A DNA stretch of 64,000 bases from contig OZ242311.1 of the NCBI GenBank assembly GCA_965207885.1, forward strand, positions 1,536,001 to 1,600,000, read 5' to 3'. Shown here one piece after another: positions 5,747 through 57,941 of the stretch. The notes beneath the pieces are model-generated. The model ran no database searches and was not told the origin of the DNA. It saw only the letters and a list, made by a program, of their open reading frames with translations. Position numbers and translations under genes: made by a program. The DNA comes from Candidatus Latescibacterota bacterium. GTDB lineage: Bacteria > Latescibacterota > UBA2968. Within the stretch, counting starts at the first letter, position 1; each line of letters opens with the position of its first letter.

Positions 5747-6883
5747 CTACTTCCAAACAGACCGCAGTGTTCGGGCCAATTGAATCAAACTCTCCAGATT
5801 GTGTGCGGGCAAAAAATAATCCAGATATGGAAGTGCTGTCTTCATCCCCAAACACAGGGGCTGATACCCCGGCGTGCCCAAAAGTGGATTGAGCCACATC
5901 AACTTATGCACGCGCTTTCGCAATCGCGCCATCTCTTGCCGCATCAAATCGGGATCGCCCCGGTCCCAGCCGTCGCTCACAATAATCATCACAGTGCGCG
6001 AGTGCAACATATCGCGTGCAAACTGGTCGTTAAACTCGCGCAAACACCCGCCAATATCTGTGCCACCCGCCCAGTCGTGTACTGTATCAGCCACTTCTAC
6101 AAGTGATTCTTCAATGCCTTTTGTTTTGAGCAAACGCGAAATTGCGGTCATCCGCGTGGAAAACACCCCGACCTCCACATCTCGGATTTCGCGCTTGAGC
6201 GCGTAGATAAAGCGAATCAGAAACCGGCTATAACAATCCATAGACCCGCTCACATCACACAACAACATCAGCTTGGTCTTTTTGATGCGACGCCGCTTCA
6301 TCATCAATTCGACACCGTCAGAACCATACAGCGCATTGCGCCGCCATGTGCGCCTGAAATCCAGTTCAGCCCCCCGATTTTCGGGCACGCGCCTGCGACT
6401 GCGGCGGTTGGCAATGATATTCACAATTTCGTGGATCACCTTTCGGGCCTGCTCAATCTCGCGATCGGACATTGCGGCCAAATCTTTTCCCATCAAAGCC
6501 TCATCGGGGCTATACCCAACCTCCTCGGATTCGCCTTCCCCCTCGGCCTCTTCCTGCAAATCTGCAGTATCCACCACCTCATTGACATCTGCCTGAACAT
6601 CGAGATCCGGATCTCCGCCGGCATCCGTATCGGTCAGAGTCATATCGTCGGGCAAAATCGGTCGCGCCCAGAAAGCCCTGAAAACCTCGTCAAAAGTCTC
6701 CAGATCGTCATAGCGCGACACCAGTGTCGCACGCGCAGCAGCGTAAAAATCGCTCCGATTGTGCAGGCTGATATATTGAAAACTATCGCACAAATCAATG
6801 AGATTGCCCGCATTGACTTCAACGCCAGCACTGTGCAAAGCCCTTGAAAAACCGACAACTCGTCCCAGCATAGTTCTTGGCAT
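5747..6883 (-). CDS. coxE: CoxE-like VWA domain protein
   Basis: MIDAS motif CDVSGSMD, FSTR, WAGGTDIG, SDGWDRGD, WLNPL; follows a MoxR ATPase. Confidence 0.9.
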   Translation of the reverse strand: MPRTMLGRVVGFSRALHSAGVEVNAGNLIDLCDSFQYISLHNRSDFYAAARATLVSRYDDLETFDEVFRAFWARPILPDDMTLTDTDAGGDPDLDVQADVNEVVDTADLQEEAEGEGESEEVGYSPDEALMGKDLAAMSDREIEQARKVIHEIVNIIANRRSRRRVPENRGAELDFRRTWRRNALYGSDGVELMMKRRRIKKTKLMLLCDVSGSMDCYSRFLIRFIYALKREIRDVEVGVFSTRMTAISRLLKTKGIEESLVEVADTVHDWAGGTDIGGCLREFNDQFARDMLHSRTVMIIVSDGWDRGDPDLMRQEMARLRKRVHKLMWLNPLLGTPGYQPLCLGMKTALPYLDYFLPAHNLESLIQLARTLRSVWK

Positions 6884-6891
6884 GTGATCTC

Positions 6892-7803
6892 CTAAACGGC
6901 AACTTGTGTGCGTTCTTTCAGCAATCGGGCCTTCTCAATCAGTTGTGGTAGGCCGTCTTCCTGAATTTTTTCAATATCTTCTTTATACTTCAAAACACAT
7001 CCCAATGTCGCATCAACTATCTGCGGATCCAGTTCTTCAACACGCATAGCCATCAGAGCCAGTGCCCAATCAATCGTTTCGGCAACACCGGGCTTTTTGT
7101 AAAAATCGCGATTGCGCAACAATTGCATAAACCCGCAAACCTGTTGTGCCAATTCGTCCTGCACACCCGACACACGCGACCGCACAATATCCATTTCTTT
7201 GCTAAACGTGGGATAGTCAATCCACAAATACAAACACCGGCGCTTCAGCGCGTCGTGCAACTCGCGCGTTCGGTTGGACGTAAGCACGACAAACGGCACC
7301 TGCATCGCTCTTATCGCACCAATCTCGGGAATCGTAATCTGGAAATCGGATAACACTTCGAGCAAAAACGCTTCAAACTCTTCATCCGATCGATCCACTT
7401 CGTCAATCAACAACACCTGTTGCTTTTCTGCGCTACCCTCAAGAGCCGACAAAAGGGGACGCTTGAGCAAAAAATCTTCGCGAAAAATATTTTGACCAAT
7501 TTCGGCCTTGTCGATTCCCCGCGCTTCTTCGAGCCTTAGCTCCAGCATCTGACGCGGATAATTCCATTCGTACAATGCCGTATTGGCATCAATACCTTCA
7601 TAGCACTGCAATCGAATCAACTCAGTATCAAAAATACCGGCCATAACTTTGGCTACTTCTGTCTTTCCAACGCCTGGTTCCCCCTCCAGAAAAATTGGTT
7701 TGCCAAGCGACTGCGCCAAAAAAATCGTCGTTGCCAATGTGCGGTCCGTGATATACCCCTGCTCGGCAAACCGCTCTTCAACATCTTCAATAGAATTCAG
7801 CAT
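6892..7803 (-). CDS. coxD: CoxD-like MoxR AAA+ ATPase
   Basis: Walker A GEPGVGKT, RLQCYEG, YEWNY, LLIDEVDR, TSNRTRELHDALKRRC. Confidence 0.93.
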   Translation of the reverse strand: MLNSIEDVEERFAEQGYITDRTLATTIFLAQSLGKPIFLEGEPGVGKTEVAKVMAGIFDTELIRLQCYEGIDANTALYEWNYPRQMLELRLEEARGIDKAEIGQNIFREDFLLKRPLLSALEGSAEKQQVLLIDEVDRSDEEFEAFLLEVLSDFQITIPEIGAIRAMQVPFVVLTSNRTRELHDALKRRCLYLWIDYPTFSKEMDIVRSRVSGVQDELAQQVCGFMQLLRNRDFYKKPGVAETIDWALALMAMRVEELDPQIVDATLGCVLKYKEDIEKIQEDGLPQLIEKARLLKERTQVAV

Positions 7804-49915: not shown

Positions 49916-50134
49916 TTACGCAAACATCAAACGTCCTTTTGGCTCGGGAATGGGACGACCTAAATTTTTCGCCGTTTCAATCCATTCTTCGATAATGACA
50001 TCAACATTTTGCAATGCCTCATAATAAGTCGAACCATCTGCTGCACAGCCCGCAAGTTCCGGGACCTCAGCGATAAATGCCTCGTCTTCCTCACTCCAAT
50101 AAATGATGATTTCGTATTTGTGAATAGTAGTCAT
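49916..50134 (-). CDS. hicB: HicB family antitoxin (short form, orphan)
   Basis: KYEIIIYWSEED..FIAEVPEL.GC.ADG.TY.EAL...I.EWIETA...GRPIPEPKG. Confidence 0.9.
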   Translation of the reverse strand: MTTIHKYEIIIYWSEEDEAFIAEVPELAGCAADGSTYYEALQNVDVIIEEWIETAKNLGRPIPEPKGRLMFA

Positions 50135-50165
50135 TGGTTTGATTCCTGAAAAGAAGTGTTTTTGG

Positions 50166-50954
50166 TCAAACAGATTCGCCAAAAGCACTTTCTTTATAGT
50201 GTTTCTTATGTTCTTCATCTATCAGTTCTGTAGAAGATACATCCTCAAGAAGGGCATAATCCTCAACGAACTCTTTGAATTTTGCTCCTCGTTCGCTCAG
50301 ACAATTGTAAAAGAGAAGCCCCAATTCATAACTTGATAATTGTGCGCGGACGAGATTGGTATAGCGTTTTGTATCTTCTTCGAGAAGATCGCTATGATGA
50401 TCAACAAATTTGACAACATTGTACAGATGTCTAAAGTAATACCCCACAACTGGTTCATAGGGAATTAAAAAACTTTCATAAGTATCATTGAGAATCTTTG
50501 CTTCAGGAGTATTACTATTTGCAGCTTGTTGGATTTCGGGATAATGTTCTTCTTTCAAATCATTAAGCATTCTAATAAAGCACCCCCGTCCGTGTGCTCT
50601 ACCCTGAATCTCTATAGCATTAACAATATCATTATGCAGGCTAAGAAGTTGAAAAAAGGCATTTCCAAAATTCTGCTTTTGAAGTTGTTCTTTTTGGAGT
50701 GCGAGTTCCTGCTGCTGAACGTGTAGCGTCCAAATGAGAATAGCAAAAGCCAGTCCAGTAAACAAAGCGGTGACGAAGCCAAAAGAATCGCCCCATTGTC
50801 CCCTTTTTTCAACGTGAGGGACAAAATCTGGGAAAATCCATACTCCCCAAAGAATGAGCAAACCAGAGAGACCGACAAATATTCCCAAACCTTTCAAACC
50901 TGTTTTAATTTTTTTCCACCAGTCCATTTTCGATTTATCAGAATTTTTGTTCAT
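50166..50954 (-). CDS. Putative phage abortive infection protein (putAbiC-like)
   Basis: 2 TM, GQWGDSFG, FFQLL..H, GYYFRHLY..VKF, Y..LVRAQLS..EL.LLFYN. Confidence 0.82.
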   Translation of the reverse strand: MNKNSDKSKMDWWKKIKTGLKGLGIFVGLSGLLILWGVWIFPDFVPHVEKRGQWGDSFGFVTALFTGLAFAILIWTLHVQQQELALQKEQLQKQNFGNAFFQLLSLHNDIVNAIEIQGRAHGRGCFIRMLNDLKEEHYPEIQQAANSNTPEAKILNDTYESFLIPYEPVVGYYFRHLYNVVKFVDHHSDLLEEDTKRYTNLVRAQLSSYELGLLFYNCLSERGAKFKEFVEDYALLEDVSSTELIDEEHKKHYKESAFGESV

Positions 50955-50968
50955 GTAAACAATCGTTT

Positions 50969-53557
50969 CTATATTTGCTCGTGGTCATTTATTTTTAATG
51001 CCTGGTACAGGCTGTCCTTAAACTTATTTTCGTCTTCGTTGTTGTAAAACGGCACGCCTATCAAACGGTATTTCTCGTTCTCAAACGTCAAGGTTTGGCA
51101 GTCAAACTCAGAAGTGATCTCCTGTAAGAAGATTTCCTTCCAACGGTCACTCTCTTTCAGATGCTTGCCCTTGGGTTCGATAAACATCTGATAGGTAAGC
51201 ATATTTCCATCTTGTTCGCGCAGGAACAGAACAAAATCTGGCTCAAATGCCTGTCCATCGTCAAAATTGTAAATTTTGAAATGCCTCTCGTTTCGCAGCA
51301 GATATATCTCGTCGTAATTTTCTGTTAGCTTGCTCATCTGGCGGTCAAGCATTCGCACAAATGCCTTTTCTTCGCTTGTGCCGTAAACCGTATTGAAGGC
51401 AAACCAGTCTTTGGAAGATACGAAATGCGCGAATTGTGCGTCTTCTTCAGCCTGCGGGTTTTGAACGTCAAATTTTAACACTTTATCCTTGAAGATTTTA
51501 TGCACCCTATCGCGCCTGAAATCTCGCGAGCCTTCGTATTCGGTAATTTGTTGGCGAATTTCAGATTCAATTTGGTGCAACAGCCCACACACGGCTTCGC
51601 GTTGTTCAGCACGGTTGTCTTGCAGCGCAGACACCTGGCCTTCAAAGGTGATCTCCAGCCCCCCAAGATAATTTTCAGAACTAATGAATTCTCGAATAGA
51701 TGCTATATTGGGGAAATAGCGTTTGAGGGACGCGAACGTAAAGAACGGATTGCGTGCAATAGCAGATTGAACAATGTTCCGTCCGAAGTCTTTAACCTTC
51801 ATATCCCGACGGTTTTCGTCTTTTACCACTGTCCCCTGATGTTCGCTTGCCAAAACTGTTTGTGTGCCACCGTGACCTGTGGCGATGGTATGAACGTAGT
51901 TTTGCATCGTCACGCCTAAATCTTCAAAAGATTGTACCCTCTGATAATTTTTAGGGAGACGGTCATTGAGCCAGACCACACCATATTTGTAGAAATCGGT
52001 TTTCTTGAACGGGTCTTTGAGGTTCAGTTTGCGGGTCACTTCGCGCTCATCCATCATACCCTGTTCAACCAGCGCGGTACGAAGTTCGGAAATATAGCGG
52101 GAATCATGGATACTGTGATAATGCAACTCCTCCAGCACGCGCAGTTCATTTTCGAGGTCATCGTCAAATTTCCGACAGAAGCGGTCAGTGTTCTCAGATA
52201 AAACAAAAGGGAAATAACGCGCTCCGCGACCGATGAGTTGCGCTTCGGACATGGTTGTTCTCCCAATTCTATTCTTTCCCGAGTCACGCGCTTCGTAACA
52301 GCGAACAATGTCGAACAGATTCAGTACATCCCAACCCTCATTGAGTTTTTGTACAGCAAAAATAGCGCGGATGAGATTGTCCCGATCTTCGAGCGTGTTG
52401 ACCAGTATTTGGTAGTTCTCCTTCTCTTTTTCTGCGTTGACTGAGATACAGTAATCTTCCTGAAATGCTCGCTTCAAGCGTTCTGCCAACTGCGCGTCGA
52501 TGATATTATGATCATCAAAGAATTGAAATGCCCGCTGAACAAGGGGAATATCTGACCTGCGAACGCGAGCAATCTGTCCTGCAGTGAGACCATCAACAAG
52601 CGTATGAAAGTTGGCCTTATTCTCTTGCGATTGTGCAATCGTACGCTGTGCTTTGAACAAAATCACGGGTTTGAGGTTGATCTGATATTTCGCCGCCACT
52701 TCCTGCTTGTACTGGCTCAAAATCAGAGCTTGCAGGATGCGCTCATTCAGGTCGAAGTCGGATTGCACAATGACCACATCTTTTGAAAAACGGTCGTTGC
52801 GGAATTGCAGCAAGTCATAGCGATATAACACCTTGTTGCGGTATTTTTCCACCATCGCAGGCGTCTCGTAATCGTGCGTGGCGGTAAATTCCAGTAGCAG
52901 GTTGTCTTCATTCTGAGAGAAAATGCGCTCGACGGTATTTTCCCAACTCTCGAACATCTCCCGCTGAGACTTGGTCGTAACGTTCATGTGATGGGCTTCA
53001 TCGGCAATCAACACAACCTGGTGTTTGCGGAAGTCTTCAAAAGTAATGGCATTTTCTTTTTCAGTGGTCAGATCGGAGTGTAGTTTTTGAATGGTGGTAA
53101 AACAGATATTGATATCGTTGGGATTAACCGACTCAAAGTTCTCCACTGTCGAGATCCGCACGGAGCGGTTGGCGATGTGAATGTCCGTGTTGAACAGGTA
53201 TTTAATACTGGCAGGGTTGAGGAAATTGTCCCGCGTCTTTTCGATGATATTGGTAGAATTGACAAAAAAGAGAAAGTTTCGATAGCCCTTTTCATACAAG
53301 TAGAGAATCAGCCCCGCCATGATAAGCGTCTTGCCACTGCCTGTCGCCATGTTAAACAAAAAATGCAGTGGTCGTTCCTTGCCGGGAAACTCGTTATCAA
53401 GACAGTGGAAGAAACGGGCAAACGCCTCTTCTTGATAAGGGCGAAGTTCAAATTTGGGATTCAGATTGTCTTTGAGGTAGGGAGGGATTTCATTTGAGAG
53501 AAATCCCATTTGGGAAACAGCATTAAGCGTCTCATATAAGAACTTATCTGCCATCAT
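50969..53557 (-). CDS. res: Type III restriction endonuclease Res subunit
   Basis: LRPYQ, MATGSGKT, DEAHH, LEFTAT, KLNEGWDVLNLFDIVR, QLIGRGAR, C-terminal FEPDF...FIEPKG nuclease motif. Confidence 0.93.
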   Translation of the reverse strand: MMADKFLYETLNAVSQMGFLSNEIPPYLKDNLNPKFELRPYQEEAFARFFHCLDNEFPGKERPLHFLFNMATGSGKTLIMAGLILYLYEKGYRNFLFFVNSTNIIEKTRDNFLNPASIKYLFNTDIHIANRSVRISTVENFESVNPNDINICFTTIQKLHSDLTTEKENAITFEDFRKHQVVLIADEAHHMNVTTKSQREMFESWENTVERIFSQNEDNLLLEFTATHDYETPAMVEKYRNKVLYRYDLLQFRNDRFSKDVVIVQSDFDLNERILQALILSQYKQEVAAKYQINLKPVILFKAQRTIAQSQENKANFHTLVDGLTAGQIARVRRSDIPLVQRAFQFFDDHNIIDAQLAERLKRAFQEDYCISVNAEKEKENYQILVNTLEDRDNLIRAIFAVQKLNEGWDVLNLFDIVRCYEARDSGKNRIGRTTMSEAQLIGRGARYFPFVLSENTDRFCRKFDDDLENELRVLEELHYHSIHDSRYISELRTALVEQGMMDEREVTRKLNLKDPFKKTDFYKYGVVWLNDRLPKNYQRVQSFEDLGVTMQNYVHTIATGHGGTQTVLASEHQGTVVKDENRRDMKVKDFGRNIVQSAIARNPFFTFASLKRYFPNIASIREFISSENYLGGLEITFEGQVSALQDNRAEQREAVCGLLHQIESEIRQQITEYEGSRDFRRDRVHKIFKDKVLKFDVQNPQAEEDAQFAHFVSSKDWFAFNTVYGTSEEKAFVRMLDRQMSKLTENYDEIYLLRNERHFKIYNFDDGQAFEPDFVLFLREQDGNMLTYQMFIEPKGKHLKESDRWKEIFLQEITSEFDCQTLTFENEKYRLIGVPFYNNEDENKFKDSLYQALKINDHEQI

Positions 53558-53559
53558 AT

Positions 53560-53820
53560 CTAATCTCTGTACACTTCTCGCCGATGCCGGACCCGATAGA
53601 CTTCAATCTCCCGCTTTTTTCGGTCAACAGCATAGACGACGCGATAATCGCCCACGCGCAGTCTGAACTGGCCTTGCTTCGGTCCAGTGAGTGCCGTCAG
53701 TTTGGTAGCCTCAAAGTTCTCGGCTAACCACCGCAGTTTTCCAATTACGCGCTGTGCTGTTGCCCTACCCAAACGTCGTACATCAGATTGAGCACGATCC
53801 GAAAATACCACATCATACAT
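53560..53820 (-). CDS. relE: RelE/ParE family toxin
   Basis: ATG in TAATG overlap with the mod stop; MYDVVFS..A..D...L, L.G...G.FRLRVGDYRVVY, V.HRREVY. Confidence 0.92.
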   Translation of the reverse strand: MYDVVFSDRAQSDVRRLGRATAQRVIGKLRWLAENFEATKLTALTGPKQGQFRLRVGDYRVVYAVDRKKREIEVYRVRHRREVYRD

Positions 53821-55904
53821 TACCAATTAAGCCCCAATTCTTCGGCGACTTTCTCGGCAGGGATAGTCTTTCCACCGGCTTCCACATCGGCGATGGTCTG
53901 CTGGAGTTCTGCGACAAATTCGTCGCGCAATTCCAAACCCTCGTCGGGATCCTGTCCGTAGAACTCCTCGTTTAATTCCTTGTCTTCCGCGCTTATGCCA
54001 AATTCCTCGTCGTCAATTTCTGAAAAATTGACATAGAGTTGGTTCTTATCCAGCAGTTCCGCGAGCAGTTTTTTTTGTTTCTTCAGTCCATTTTCGCCTT
54101 CGCCGATGGCGATGAAAGTATCAACCGCATCTTCCGGGACTTCAGGGTTCACATACCAGTTCAAAAATGAGTTTTCTGCAATATCTCGCCAGAGTTTTAC
54201 AAGCTCTTCAGAGGATTGCGCGGCTTGAATTTTACCCATATAGGCTTCGTTGTATTGCATCAGTTCACAATAGACAAAGTCGCCACCGCCCTGCCAGTCG
54301 ACGGATTCAGAGATGCCACCAGTGTCATATTCAATTTCTTCTGGTAGCTTGTCCTCCTGCCCTAATTTTTTGCCGACAACTTTTTTTACCCGTTCAACGG
54401 GTATGGTTTCCATATAATCCATCTGTTCAACAGTAATCCATTGTCGATGCATCTTGTGAGCAACTGCGGCAGTGGTGCCGGAGCCGGCGAAGAAGTCGAG
54501 AATAAGATCGCCTTCATTTGTAGACATCTCAATGATTTGTTTAATTAATCCTTCCGGTTTTGGAGTGTCAAAGATATTTACACTACCAAACAGACTTTGA
54601 ATTTCACTGGTTCCCTTATTTCCTAAAGGAATATCATCCCATATCGTTCCATAAGGGACTCCCTCTTTTACATCACAAAGAAATCTTTTTAATTTTGGAC
54701 GGCCTTTTCCATCTTTACCAAAATAAATCTCTTTATTTGCCAATAATGTCTCGATTTTCTCTTTATTGAAACGCCAATTGCCTTTTGATGAAGGATAATG
54801 CTGTTTTCCTGTCTCGGGATTCACGATTGGAAAATAGAGAGACTTTACATATCTGCCTCCCTTTACATTCGCCATCAAATTATCCGGAGCCCATACACCT
54901 TTAGGATGGTTGTCCGGGTTTTTATACCTTGAAAGTTGTTGTTCGGTTCTCTGTCTTCGGTTCAAGACTCTTTCCAGCGTTCCATTTTTGCAGAAGGACA
55001 GAACAAATTCATGAGTTGCTCCAATTTTTTTGTCATTTGGTGCACTCCCTCTTTTTTTCCAAATAATTTGTTGATAGTTCTCCTCAGAACAATTGAAAAT
55101 TTCATCACAAAGTATCTTCAAGTAAGGTTGCTCCTTATCTGTTATCTGTATAAACAACAAACCACCATTCATAAGTAAATCAGACGCAATTTGTAAACGA
55201 TTCTTCATGAAGGTAAGCCATGAAGAATGATTAAAATTGTCATTATATTTGAATCCATCTTTTCCTGTGTTATACGGTGGATCAATATAAATCAGCTTTA
55301 CCTTGCCCTGGAATTGCTTTTTAAGCGTATGCAAAGCCAGGAGATTATTGCCCTTTATAATTAGGTTTTCACGGATGGTACCGCGCTCATCACGCCTCAA
55401 CCCCATCACGTCCTCTTCGCCATCCACCGTATAGCGTTTCCAGTTGGTCAATACCTTTGGATCAAATAGCCGGTCAATTTCGTCCTGTGCCAGAATTTCA
55501 TTAAAAAAAATCTCCATACGCTTTTCTTCATGCTTGGTTTGTCCGCCCTCCAATACGCAGTCCTTGTACGGCCATACCAGAGACACTTCACCTCGCTCCC
55601 GCAGAAACTTATCGTCGATATTCAAACCAATCCTGTTGCGGAATCGGGTGTATGAGTCGGCGAGAAAGTTCTTATCGGAAACGTATTCAATGAAGGCGTT
55701 GAGATTGAAAATCCAGTGGCCTTCGATCTCGTCAAAGAATTTTGTCTTGATTTCCGCATCACCAAGCAGCAGTCTCACAAGGTCATGGTCAATCTTCCAG
55801 GCTCGATCTGTCACCGCCGCTTTGACCAACTCGCCTTCGTCGTCAATGAAACGGGCGTCGGTTTTGAGCAATTCGATCAATTTTTCGTTAAAGTTTTTTA
55901 GCAT
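53820..55904 (-). CDS. mod: Type III R-M DNA adenine methyltransferase Mod, with C-terminal antitoxin-like extension
   Basis: Likely start MLKNFNEK at 55904; NLIIKGNNL, IYIDPPY, TPKPE, DFFAGSGTT; extra 44-aa tail QDPDEGLELR...AEELGLNW. Confidence 0.92.
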   Translation of the reverse strand: MLKNFNEKLIELLKTDARFIDDEGELVKAAVTDRAWKIDHDLVRLLLGDAEIKTKFFDEIEGHWIFNLNAFIEYVSDKNFLADSYTRFRNRIGLNIDDKFLRERGEVSLVWPYKDCVLEGGQTKHEEKRMEIFFNEILAQDEIDRLFDPKVLTNWKRYTVDGEEDVMGLRRDERGTIRENLIIKGNNLLALHTLKKQFQGKVKLIYIDPPYNTGKDGFKYNDNFNHSSWLTFMKNRLQIASDLLMNGGLLFIQITDKEQPYLKILCDEIFNCSEENYQQIIWKKRGSAPNDKKIGATHEFVLSFCKNGTLERVLNRRQRTEQQLSRYKNPDNHPKGVWAPDNLMANVKGGRYVKSLYFPIVNPETGKQHYPSSKGNWRFNKEKIETLLANKEIYFGKDGKGRPKLKRFLCDVKEGVPYGTIWDDIPLGNKGTSEIQSLFGSVNIFDTPKPEGLIKQIIEMSTNEGDLILDFFAGSGTTAAVAHKMHRQWITVEQMDYMETIPVERVKKVVGKKLGQEDKLPEEIEYDTGGISESVDWQGGGDFVYCELMQYNEAYMGKIQAAQSSEELVKLWRDIAENSFLNWYVNPEVPEDAVDTFIAIGEGENGLKKQKKLLAELLDKNQLYVNFSEIDDEEFGISAEDKELNEEFYGQDPDEGLELRDEFVAELQQTIADVEAGGKTIPAEKVAEELGLNW

Positions 55905-56044
55905 GGTACAATCCTTAAAGTGGAAGGATAGGCAACCTGTGGACACGGATGCGGTCACGCCAGCGCGGATACTTGATCTTTAGCATGTCCAATCGCCGGA
56001 CATTGAAGGCGATTTCGTTGGTCTTGGAAATGGTCTGAGAAAGG

Positions 56045-56590
56045 TCAGTCTATTTGAATGACATCATCCGAAAGTTTTCGATCCAACTCAGGTGACGGAA
56101 TAATATCGACCTCAGTCAGCATCTCTTTCTTCAATGTACTTTTTAGAAAATTTCGCAACTTGTCTCTCAGGTGGTCCAGCAGAACAGAAGAATCCGGCGA
56201 ATCCGTAGTCGTTATAAGCCAGTAGTGAAATTGATGCTCTGGCAGAAACGCTTTTACTCGTGCCCACCAACTGGACAGACGACAAAGGACCAACATGGAA
56301 CCGTAAAGTTTAAGGCGGTGCTCTCTGAGAACATCTTCGTAAAGCAAGGCAGTTTGATCTTCGTCATTAAGGTAGCCATGTCTTTGTTTGAAAGCAACGA
56401 TCGTCTGCCCTAAATCGGTTTCCTCAATCAAAACGACGCTTTGTCCATCCTTGCTGACCGTCACATAGTCGCAGCACTCACAGGTCCCAAGCCCGGCAGC
56501 GTGGCGCATGTCGTTTGCTGTGTTGTCCATCCGATATGCTGTGAAGCCGCTGGCAGACTCAATTTCCTCAGCAAATTGTGATAAGCGCAT
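56045..56590 (-). CDS. Hypothetical protein paired with the AAA ATPase; possible PD-(D/E)xK-like nuclease
   Basis: Starts 1 nt after the ATPase stop; CECCDY...VVLIEET acidic motif; KL.GS. Confidence 0.65.
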   Translation of the reverse strand: MRLSQFAEEIESASGFTAYRMDNTANDMRHAAGLGTCECCDYVTVSKDGQSVVLIEETDLGQTIVAFKQRHGYLNDEDQTALLYEDVLREHRLKLYGSMLVLCRLSSWWARVKAFLPEHQFHYWLITTTDSPDSSVLLDHLRDKLRNFLKSTLKKEMLTEVDIIPSPELDRKLSDDVIQID

Positions 56591-56591
56591 T

Positions 56592-57941
56592 CTACAACCC
56601 CGTGATATAGAGGTCGGAGAAAGGCTGAGTCAACGATTGTTTGGCTTCTGCCATCACCGCGTCCATATCGTCATTCCATTCGGCATCCGGCGGAAACTTA
56701 TTCAACCTGACGAATGCCCGGTCTTTCGATTCTTTCTTTAGATGCACCTCAAGCCACTTGAGGATCGTCATGCTATGGGTGGAGATCACTACATGAACCC
56801 CCTGACGAGCCAACTCAAAAAGGAACTCCGCCATCTCAACCTGCCAGGCTGGATGCAGATTCGCCTCGGGTTCATCAATGAACAGGAAAGAACCGGGTTC
56901 TAATGCCCCTCGTTCAATTAGCAACGCCAACATACCCATGTTGGCAACCCCAGCCGACGTAAGAGAGAGCGGAAATGACCCACCACTTGTTTGAAATTCG
57001 AGATCGCCCGCCTCACTCAGCACAATTTTCCCTCCAATCGCATTGTGCAGACCTTTGTGAATCTCGGCGAAAGGATGATCAATGCGCTGTCTTCTGAGAG
57101 CGACGACCACATCGTAAAAATAAGATGGGACTCCGCTCAAGGACCTCCAGGAAGAGGAACTCGAGTCGAGCTTAATTGATTCCAGAGGATTTTTCAGCTT
57201 CCAATAGAGTTGGGACTCTAAATAGAAGGCTTCGGGAAATGATTGCGAATTTTGAACGATTTGCGGATCGAGTATGAAATTGAATTGGTTTGCTTCTTCC
57301 AAACTCCCTAATCCTTGGACGCTGAAAGACAAGGGGGAATCACCGACTCCTTTGAGCTGTGAAATATCAGATACTTGAAAATTTCCGCTTACATTCTGGC
57401 GAAACTTCCAGGCCCATCCGATATTAATCATCAGTTCCTCATTCCTGAAAACCTTGTCCAACGCATCTATGCTATCTTTGATGTATCCGTGAAGCTGTAA
57501 TACCTCGGAGCGGTCTTCTTCTCTTTCAATGTTGTTTTTTAGGATTTGGAAATGGGTCTTCATCGCCTCAATTTCTGCTATCACTTCGGGTTGCACCGAC
57601 TTGAGCACATCGAGTTCATTTTGGCTCACACTGCTTGAGGCCGCTTCCCGCAAGAGAGAATCAATTTTTTGCAATGCCCTTCTAATGCCAGACCTGGCGC
57701 GTTCTCCTGTCGCACCAAAATCTCTATTCAATTCTAAGATGCGGTAAATCAAACTGACGTCGTGCGCTTCAAAAAACACGAGCGCAGGATTCGCGTTTAT
57801 CGCTCCAAGCATCGAATAGAGCATCTTCGCCACAAAGGTCTTGCCAGTATTGTTTGGCCCAGCGAAGACCGTGAACCGGCCCACCTGTATGGTCGCTTCG
57901 TCAATTGGCCCAAAATTCTGAATTTTTAACTCGAGGTCCAT
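56592..57941 (-). CDS. ABC-type AAA ATPase (AAA_15/AAA_21-like)
   Basis: RBS AAGGAGG; IQNFGPI, GPNNTGKT, SAG signature-like, FIDEPEANLHP, STHS. Confidence 0.9.
   Translation of the reverse strand: MDLELKIQNFGPIDEATIQVGRFTVFAGPNNTGKTFVAKMLYSMLGAINANPALVFFEAHDVSLIYRILELNRDFGATGERARSGIRRALQKIDSLLREAASSSVSQNELDVLKSVQPEVIAEIEAMKTHFQILKNNIEREEDRSEVLQLHGYIKDSIDALDKVFRNEELMINIGWAWKFRQNVSGNFQVSDISQLKGVGDSPLSFSVQGLGSLEEANQFNFILDPQIVQNSQSFPEAFYLESQLYWKLKNPLESIKLDSSSSSWRSLSGVPSYFYDVVVALRRQRIDHPFAEIHKGLHNAIGGKIVLSEAGDLEFQTSGGSFPLSLTSAGVANMGMLALLIERGALEPGSFLFIDEPEANLHPAWQVEMAEFLFELARQGVHVVISTHSMTILKWLEVHLKKESKDRAFVRLNKFPPDAEWNDDMDAVMAEAKQSLTQPFSDLYITGL

Follow-up and report, generated by a model that had tools for sequence, protein, structure and literature searches.

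The locus described here raises the question of whether a DNA methyltransferase can carry the antitoxin of a toxin that is encoded beside it. It lies in a 64,000-nucleotide (nt) stretch of the genome of a sponge-symbiotic Candidatus Latescibacterota bacterium (assembly GCA_965207885.1, contig OZ242311.1, positions 1,536,001 to 1,600,000), and this whole stretch is referred to below as the window. A relE toxin gene is located between mod and res, the genes for the methyltransferase and restriction subunits of a type III restriction-modification system, and Mod ends in a tail of 44 residues. The original prediction, which was made from the letters of the window, was that this tail resembles the C-terminal half of the small antitoxins that precede RelE genes and that Mod itself acts as the antitoxin. 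Our analysis suggests that a type II RelE toxin-antitoxin cassette has probably been merged into a type III restriction-modification operon, leaving an antitoxin tethered to Mod. The features concerned are listed below in the coordinates of the window.

53955..55904, minus strand: core of the type III methyltransferase Mod, covering residues 1-650 in the 694-amino-acid (aa) reading (PF12564, PF01555, PADLOC MTase_III)
53823..53954, minus strand: 44-residue C-terminal tail of Mod, a domain that by homology to a free-standing family is antitoxin-derived, reading QDPDEGLELRDEF...AEELGLNW
53818..53822, minus strand: TAATG, in which the stop codon of mod and the start codon of relE overlap, as read from the sequence
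53560..53820, minus strand: relE, encoding a predicted RelE/ParE-superfamily toxin of 86 aa (PF05016 at 1.1e-12)
50969..53557, minus strand: type III Res restriction subunit of 862 aa (PF04851; PADLOC REase_III over the full length)

The window sequence and its list of open reading frames (ORFs) show mod, relE and res as consecutive genes arranged head to tail on the minus strand. The open frame of Mod reaches from 53820 to 55958 and there is an in-frame GTG at 55958, upstream of an ATG at 55904. The GTG is probably not the start codon of Mod. Homologues of 687-710 aa start at the equivalent of M19, and because of this the whole mod gene was taken to run from the likely ATG at 55904 to 53820, encoding 694 aa. 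The TAA stop codon of mod (53822-53820) overlaps the ATG of relE (53820-53818), which suggests that translation of the two genes is coupled, and an identical TAATG overlap is present at the junction between a free-standing antitoxin gene and relE in another locus (L056). The ATG of res is at 53557, 2 nt past the relE stop. There is no ORF of at least 40 aa between mod and res except for relE and frames antisense to it. The gene order, the overlap, the 2 nt gap, the RelE motifs and the lack of a separate antitoxin ORF of that size beside relE are therefore all as first described.

Mod matches PF01555 (2.3e-50), PF12564 (3.8e-20) and the PADLOC MTase_III model PDLC03635 (8e-171), the last of these over residues 123-652, and its translation shows the motifs DPPY and FAGSGTT. 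Res matches PF04851 (1.3e-33) and, over its full length, the PADLOC REase_III model PDLC03651 (1.6e-144). With these Mod domains and a downstream Res of the superfamily 2 (SF2) helicase/ATPase type on the same strand, the locus has the predicted composition of a type III restriction-modification system. The protein encoded between them scores 48.7 bits against PF05016 (cut-off 23) and 23.9 bits against the narrower TIGR02385 (RelE_StbE), which is under the cut-off of 27.9. It contains the motifs RLRVGDYR and HRREVY, the family-invariant residues G57, R60, Y63, H79 and R80 are retained, and the basic and tyrosine positions are conserved. When a profile built from 27 homologues was compared with the Protein Data Bank (PDB), it matched 2khe (4e-14), 3g5o (5e-9) and 9g12 (Toxin RelE; 1e-7), with further matches to 1wmi (5e-5) and 4v7k (5e-3). 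On this profile and motif evidence the window protein belongs to the RelE superfamily.

Is the tail a normal part of Mod? It reads QDPDEG...LGLNW and directly follows ...LNEEFYG of Mod. Mod residues 540-712 were used as a query, and the C-termini of the best 120 of 2000 matches were compared. The protein ends 0-20 residues past the conserved ...LN..FYG, with the tail absent, in 84 of these 120 homologues. The tail is present in the other 36, of which 30 have a type A tail (...DPDEGLELRDEF...LGLNW) and six have a divergent type B tail (...VDPDEGLELREEF...LGxxL). The two types are ~45% identical and each has its own relE. The PADLOC model PDLC03635 stops at Mod residue 652 of 694, which is about where the tail starts. 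Judged by these alignments the tail is an add-on to Mod, in agreement with the original statement that this Mod subfamily ends at FYG.

The source of the tail was found among small proteins. When Mod residues 666-712 were searched among shorter proteins there were 27 matches, consisting of five Mod fragments, 18 free proteins of 73-85 aa, three of 132-134 aa and one over-extended frame. The free antitoxin-like proteins read M..DLTVDEFKKLIREVVIQTLSEMLGDPDEGLELRDEF...VAAKLGLTW. In the 73-74 aa forms the C-terminal 43 residues are 63-79% identical to the tail and have the same last residue. A profile of 74 positions (A1), built from 16 free antitoxin-like proteins, matches the window tail with an E value of 2.9e-20. 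Only profile positions 31-74 are matched, so the tail represents the C-terminal portion of a 73-74 aa family protein rather than a full member; the ~30 N-terminal residues of the free form are not present in Mod. Family invariants are kept in tails of both type A and type B, namely the DPD.GL.L motif (E5 and E8 being nearly invariant), A37 and G41. The homology indicates that the tail is derived from the C-terminal two-thirds of an antitoxin-like protein that usually precedes this RelE subfamily. The predicted likeness to the C-terminal part of small pre-RelE antitoxins has thus been placed on a firmer footing by the identity values and the A1 match.

Named antitoxin families recognise the tail and its relatives weakly. 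The tail matches the NCBIfam model NF048017 (antitoxin_RelB_like) with an E value of 0.0065, and in a scan of 28 family members and tails there were weak matches to NF048017 in 14 of the 28, to TIGR02574 in seven (best 2.1e-5) and to NF050811 in four. The best scores were 15.8-16.7 bits for NF048017 (cut-off 50) and 16.6 bits for TIGR02574 (cut-off 31.9). The matches to the three models are consistent but weak, all of them lie below the cut-offs, and they indicate a likeness and not membership. The ESM Atlas cluster nearest to the 74-aa form carries the automatic name 'Addiction module antitoxin RelB family' (score 0.96). Pfam and NCBIfam scans of the tail and of the free 74-aa proteins gave no match to a DNA-binding family, and a tblastn search of the PLSDB plasmids with one 74-aa member gave no match. 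Pfam matches of the tail or the 74-aa proteins to HAAS, FlgM and DUF2683 were discounted as being at chance level, and PDB matches of A1 to a designed repeat protein (E 0.055) and to Dishevelled (E 1.4) were not considered meaningful.

A metagenome scan with the A1 profile gave 80 loci. There is a RelE homologue directly downstream of the antitoxin-like gene in 67 of them (49 full-length, 14 partial or truncated and four detected by tblastn only). There is no RelE in the remaining 13, two of which are cut by a contig end. The RelEs of the free pairs at these loci are 47-62% identical to the window RelE, with a median of 56%. Free pairs are also present in five genomes of the same genus as the window, where the identity is 70-81% between the antitoxin C-termini and the Mod tail, and 51-59% between the RelEs and the window RelE. 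Additionally, there is a natural single-chain fusion of antitoxin and RelE, of 182 aa (P0251). Going by gene neighbourhood, the 73-74 aa antitoxin-like family really is a regular partner of RelE.

Does the Mod tail keep this association with RelE? One genome per species was scanned with the C-terminal 173 residues of Mod, which gave 50 loci. The tail is present at 11 of these. At seven of the 11 relE is intact, and at three there are remnants, comprising the last 17 codons (L001), the first 25 codons (L003) and residues 2-47 (L013). At the remaining one (L006) relE has been deleted; a short trace resembling its 3' end lies before res and there is a repeat-containing insert instead. None of the 39 tail-less species-representative loci has relE, and there is no locus with relE but without the tail. 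At the level of gene content this shows strict linkage between tail and relE. The mod(+tail)-relE-res arrangement is not a one-off occurrence and always comes with relE or with its remnants or trace; nor is the tail a normal Mod end in loci that lack the toxin, as there is no tail-bearing locus that never had relE. The loss or truncation of relE in L001, L003, L006 and L013 with the tail kept fits the prediction, for toxin-antitoxin pairs, of toxin-only decay. The insert in place of relE in L006 (6501-6715) is ~190 nt long with a twice-repeated motif and hairpin potential, like a small mobile repeat, and it is followed by a 35-nt piece of the 3' end of a 132-aa antitoxin gene, then by the last few bases of relE and then by res.

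The tail-bearing metagenome-assembled genomes (MAGs) are labelled as Latescibacterota, Poribacteria, Opitutales, Gammaproteobacteria and Poriferihabitans, and several carry titles suggesting sponge metagenomes. In a tree of the Mod core, from which the tail and the target-recognition columns were excluded, the 13 type A rows (support 98) and the six type B rows (support 100) form separate clades among the tail-less Mods. In the RelE tree all eight Mod-linked RelEs are on one side of a single (starred) branch and the 19 free-pair RelEs are on the other side, and the single type B RelE is on a very long branch. Because the Mod-core tree gives two clades and the RelE tree gives one group, the Mod-tail fusion appears to have arisen once or twice, and the 3' block to have moved between mod backgrounds. 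Two fusions are possible, and so is one fusion after which the 3' block spread laterally.

Comparison of the window with L002, L004 and L005 gives nucleotide identities of 83-90% for the Mod C-domain, 95-99% for the tail and relE, and 85-97% for res. The tail and relE are the best-conserved nucleotide block of the operon and the jump in identity coincides with the start of the tail; therefore, the tail moves with relE and not with Mod. In L007, Mod, tail and relE are 87-91% identical to the window but most of res is just 66-78% identical, and this contrast shows recombination within the operon. Ratios of non-synonymous to synonymous substitution rates (dN/dS) were calculated by the Nei-Gojobori method and pooled over the seven intact type A loci, the pairs being non-independent, and came to 0.27 for the tail and 0.22 for relE, against 0.09 for the Mod C-domain. 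By this estimate both the tail and relE are under purifying selection.

The junction between mod and res takes up other genes as well. Among the tail-less loci with res downstream (n=30), mod and res abut (at most 160 nt) in nine and there are at least 300 nt between them in 20. The inserts at those 20 loci, which are 300-5200 nt in length, encode RhuM (8e-113), Uma2, DUF4145, LPD3 and several family-less proteins. For sponge symbionts, the genomes of which are rich in restriction and toxin-antitoxin systems, the mod-res junction is thereby shown to be a hot spot of accessory defence genes. Cargo-carrying tail-less loci include L017, L019, L020, L039-L042, L045 and L050. A poribacterial locus (L018 6001-12407) carries four tandem copies of the conserved C-terminal region of Mod, at ~6001, 7939, 9898 and 12048, which suggests that there are several mod genes or alleles in a row.

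The antitoxin-like module is also present in other arrangements. Antitoxin-like proteins of 125-134 aa consist of the whole 74-aa module, including the tail region, and an extension that ends ...REGLYEDHL. One of these, of 125 aa, is encoded in the same genome as the window operon and is followed after 2 nt by a PIN toxin of 147 aa (G000:C1:5134149-5134972; L051 1501-2324). In another genome of the same genus (G089; L202 896-1740) a tail-less Mod is followed by a 37-nt spacer, an antitoxin-like protein of 132 aa, a PIN toxin (147 aa, 2 nt later) and res. The G089 locus looks like the state before fusion, in that one deletion of ~130 nt would make a Mod-tail fusion. L015, also of this genus, has genes for a 91-aa protein and then an 84-aa ParE_like toxin (PF24732, 6e-6) between a tail-less mod and a fragmented res (6383-6913), and a 125-aa module protein lies just past this unrelated pair (6943-7320). 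A profile of the 44-residue domain matches 419 representatives at E <=0.001, and the best 150 of these 419 are mostly proteins of 60-100 aa with the domain at the C-terminus. The domain also forms almost the whole of some proteins of 47-55 aa and is located at the end of proteins of 230-249 aa whose N-terminal domain is repeated and of unknown type, and a protein of 163 aa contains the antitoxin module twice in tandem. The antitoxin module is modular, and not exclusive to RelE. Proteins in which the 44-residue domain has such other architectures are P0176, P0218, P0235, P0289, P0293 and P0251.

Mod itself varies in size with the tail in place. There are 15 tail-bearing Mod clusters of 457-458 aa (P0005, P0006, P0008-P0018, P0021 and P0025), which have lost in frame the residues equivalent to 287-510 of the window Mod, that is the target-recognition region and the S-adenosylmethionine (SAM)-binding motif I. 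P0157 is a type B mini-Mod of 183 aa in which the PF12564 N-domain is joined straight to the tail. One locus with a short Mod (L003/G075) is decayed: a stop interrupts the frame, and what is left of relE (its first 25 codons) runs into the final ~100 codons of res. These forms show that a tail can persist after the toxin has gone.

How might a Mod-tethered antitoxin work? In type II systems of the RelBE type the toxin is wrapped by the C-terminal part of the antitoxin (PMC12301738, abstract). By analogy with this general behaviour the tail likely neutralises RelE. Type II antitoxins are encoded beside the toxin, and here this arrangement is found in an altered form, with 44 antitoxin-homologous residues at the end of the preceding gene. 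We propose that an antitoxin-relE cassette, of a family that is common as a free pair of a 73-74 aa protein and a RelE of 87-89 aa, landed in the mod-res junction. The stop codon of mod and the first ~30 antitoxin codons would then have been lost through fusion in frame, the native overlapping start of relE being retained. The Mod tail would wrap and silence RelE, with one silenced toxin per Mod subunit, and the TAATG overlap would lead to Mod and RelE being made at ~1:1. RelE would be active only after clipping or degradation of the tail, or once its synthesis has stopped.

The most likely consequence of such an arrangement would be that the toxin penalises loss of Mod synthesis, and thereby supplies the addiction, or lock, that the operon lacks by itself. 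Type III restriction systems are, to our knowledge, not considered addictive, as Res requires Mod for cutting, and stabilisation of an otherwise non-addictive operon seems to be the simplest reading of the role of RelE. RelE might also arrest growth as a second line when the restriction complex comes under phage attack. More tentatively, the operon may be a self-guarded type III system. RelE would then be latent on Mod and would be freed when a phage disables or degrades Mod-Res or stops host expression, so that a failure of restriction would turn into an arrest of translation and hence abortive infection; Mod would be both sensor and antitoxin, and the tail-coding DNA would be an adapter for swapping toxins (RelE, PIN) behind Mod by recombination. 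We consider this extended proposal, for which PrrC, PARIS and EcoR22I serve as analogues, possible but doubtful.

Other explanations of the locus were considered. If a stop or frameshift between a small antitoxin gene and mod had been missed, the fusion would be an artefact, and this is almost certainly not the case. In each of two independent DNA runs, made in other studies, the Mod/tail/relE junctions are spanned by a contig without an indel: one contig covers 53402-54500 with indels only at 53492-53531, inside res (X5), and another covers 53550-54500 with 0 gaps (X6). The frame from Mod into the tail is also continuous in 10 other tail-bearing species-representative loci, several of which are on single-contig chromosomes, and in 36 protein clusters. 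As far as contigs allow, an artefact is refuted, and no stop or frameshift parts Mod from its tail. Could the locus instead be a relic, that is a neutral accident of a decaying cassette, with a functionless tail and a RelE that has no activity, is hardly expressed or is kept in check in trans by a further module copy? The use of the junction as a cargo site (inserts of at least 300 nt in 20/30 tail-less loci with downstream res) would fit, as would the decay of relE in 4/11 tail-bearing loci, the retention of the tail by 458-aa and 183-aa mini-Mods in decayed settings and the presence of a second module copy, within the 125-aa protein, in the same genome. However, the dN/dS values of the tail (0.27) and relE (0.22) indicate purifying selection, the family-invariant residues are kept in both, there is no relE locus without a tail, and the arrangement persists across five MAG lineage labels and in two tail types that are only ~45% identical. 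A relic is therefore unlikely. The tail might also be a dimerisation or regulatory module, with RelE controlled otherwise, for example by expression level or by surfaces of Res or Mod. In classical antitoxins the N-terminal position is that of the DNA-binding or dimerisation domain. The module occupies this usual position in the PIN-paired proteins of 125-134 aa, where it is N-terminal to a separate extension, and it is fused to unrelated N-terminal domains in the proteins of 230-249 aa. This is in contrast with the free 73-74 aa proteins, in which nothing else could neutralise RelE, and with the Mod fusions, which keep exactly the C-terminal 44 residues and have dropped the N-terminal helix. 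Proteins of 47-55 aa that are nearly all this domain also exist. A purely regulatory tail seems improbable to us.

Several points weigh against a Mod-tethered antitoxin. The module pairs with PIN toxins in the proteins of 125-134 aa (L051, G089/L202), with no RelE nearby, and in these PIN-paired proteins its role may be in dimerisation or regulation and not in binding a toxin. The 73-74 aa family is without a significant match in Pfam and NCBIfam, where all antitoxin-family matches are under the curated cut-offs, and comparison of the A1 profile with PDB sequences gave no related solved structure. The short Mods keep the tail, and L003/G075 does so without relE and most of res. The linkage of tail and relE rests on few independent events, the loci being kin (two Mod clades and one RelE group). 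Finally, a tail on a large stable enzyme may not be labile, and addiction and activation both need lability. With these points taken into account, we still regard it as probable that the operon is a hybrid in which the Mod tail is the antitoxin of RelE.

Contigs from RNA libraries span parts of the stretch only; they may include DNA, so no claim of expression or co-transcription is made from them, and gaps in the cover of X15 and X18 carry no meaning. In one contig, from a sponge RNA library (X15), there is a 204-nt in-frame deletion in relE (53614-53817) of the same type as in L001. The deletion drops relE codons 2-69, while the start, the stop and the spacing to res are kept, and this may preserve translational coupling to res.

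The genes on either side of the operon in the window are also of note. Directly upstream of mod on the minus strand (56045-57941) there is a 449-aa AAA_15/AAA_21 ATPase and a 181-aa family-less protein. The best PADLOC matches of the ATPase are HEC-02A (1e-33), PD-T4-4_A (8e-30) and AriA (1e-23). Judged from their sequences the two look like a two-gene defence system, in which case the region would be a defence island. Just downstream of res, also on the minus strand (49916-50954), there is a 262-aa AbiP/AbiC-like protein (PF16872, 1.4e-24; PADLOC AbiP, 3e-16) and a 100-aa HicB-like antitoxin (PF15919, PF21748).

How does the operon compare with known systems? It shares with the free 73-74 aa antitoxin-like/RelE pairs the toxin subfamily (47-62% identity), the C-terminal 44-residue domain and the tight or overlapping arrangement of the genes. 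It differs from them in that a 650-residue methyltransferase takes the place of the N-terminal ~30 antitoxin residues, the antitoxin has neither a separate gene nor a dedicated promoter, and res follows 2 nt after relE. The original prediction drew a parallel with PrrC, an anticodon nuclease which is described as embedded in the type Ic EcoprrI locus and silenced by the restriction-modification proteins (PMC12707154). In both cases an RNA-targeting toxin gene lies within a restriction-modification operon with a back-up logic, the silencing being established for PrrC and proposed here. There is, however, no homology between the two: PrrC, as described there, is an ABC-ATPase-type nuclease of a type I system with no antitoxin domain on the methylase, whereas the 86-aa window RelE matches PF05016 only and is not of the PrrC/RloC family, so the likeness is one of logic. 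PARIS, also treated in PMC12707154, is a further analogue for the guard role proposed above.

EcoR22I is a type III system that causes cell death upon expression of the DNA mimic Ocr, and mod and res suffice for this (bioRxiv 10.1101/2023.04.06.535777). The type III mod-res pair is common to both systems, and frontline restriction combined with a death or arrest response, as in EcoR22I, is proposed here. EcoR22I has no extra toxin gene, whereas the window operon has a dedicated relE. Non-canonical architectures of RelE/ParE are reported in PMC11980606, among them toxin and antitoxin fused in a single gene, and a tripartite operon that includes a type IV restriction-like protein. In the multidomain proteins of that text the toxin is joined to antitoxin or other domains; here, an antitoxin piece is on a methyltransferase and the toxin is separate. 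The terms methyltransferase, methylase and 'type III' have 0 occurrences in the same text. A literature search of main texts, not of supplementary tables (such as PMC11980606 Table S2 on multidomain RelE/ParE proteins, or those of PMC3632139), found no antitoxin domain fused to Mod or to another restriction-modification methyltransferase. In that scope the statement that no type III/RelE fusion system has been described still stands. The operon combines known type II toxin-antitoxin modules with the principle of restriction-embedded toxins, and it is not a categorically new system.

We know of very few cases of back-up toxins that are wired to restriction, examples being PrrC, PARIS and EcoR22I. 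If the tail neutralises RelE, a single in-frame deletion would be a simple route by which a selfish toxin-antitoxin cassette can be wired into an immune complex. The tail would be a natural minimal RelE-neutralising domain of 44 residues that could serve as a portable tag, and the operon would be a testable model of restriction coupled to abortive infection or addiction. In such an operon a housekeeping-like enzyme subunit would have taken over the (putative) toxin-binding piece of an antitoxin.

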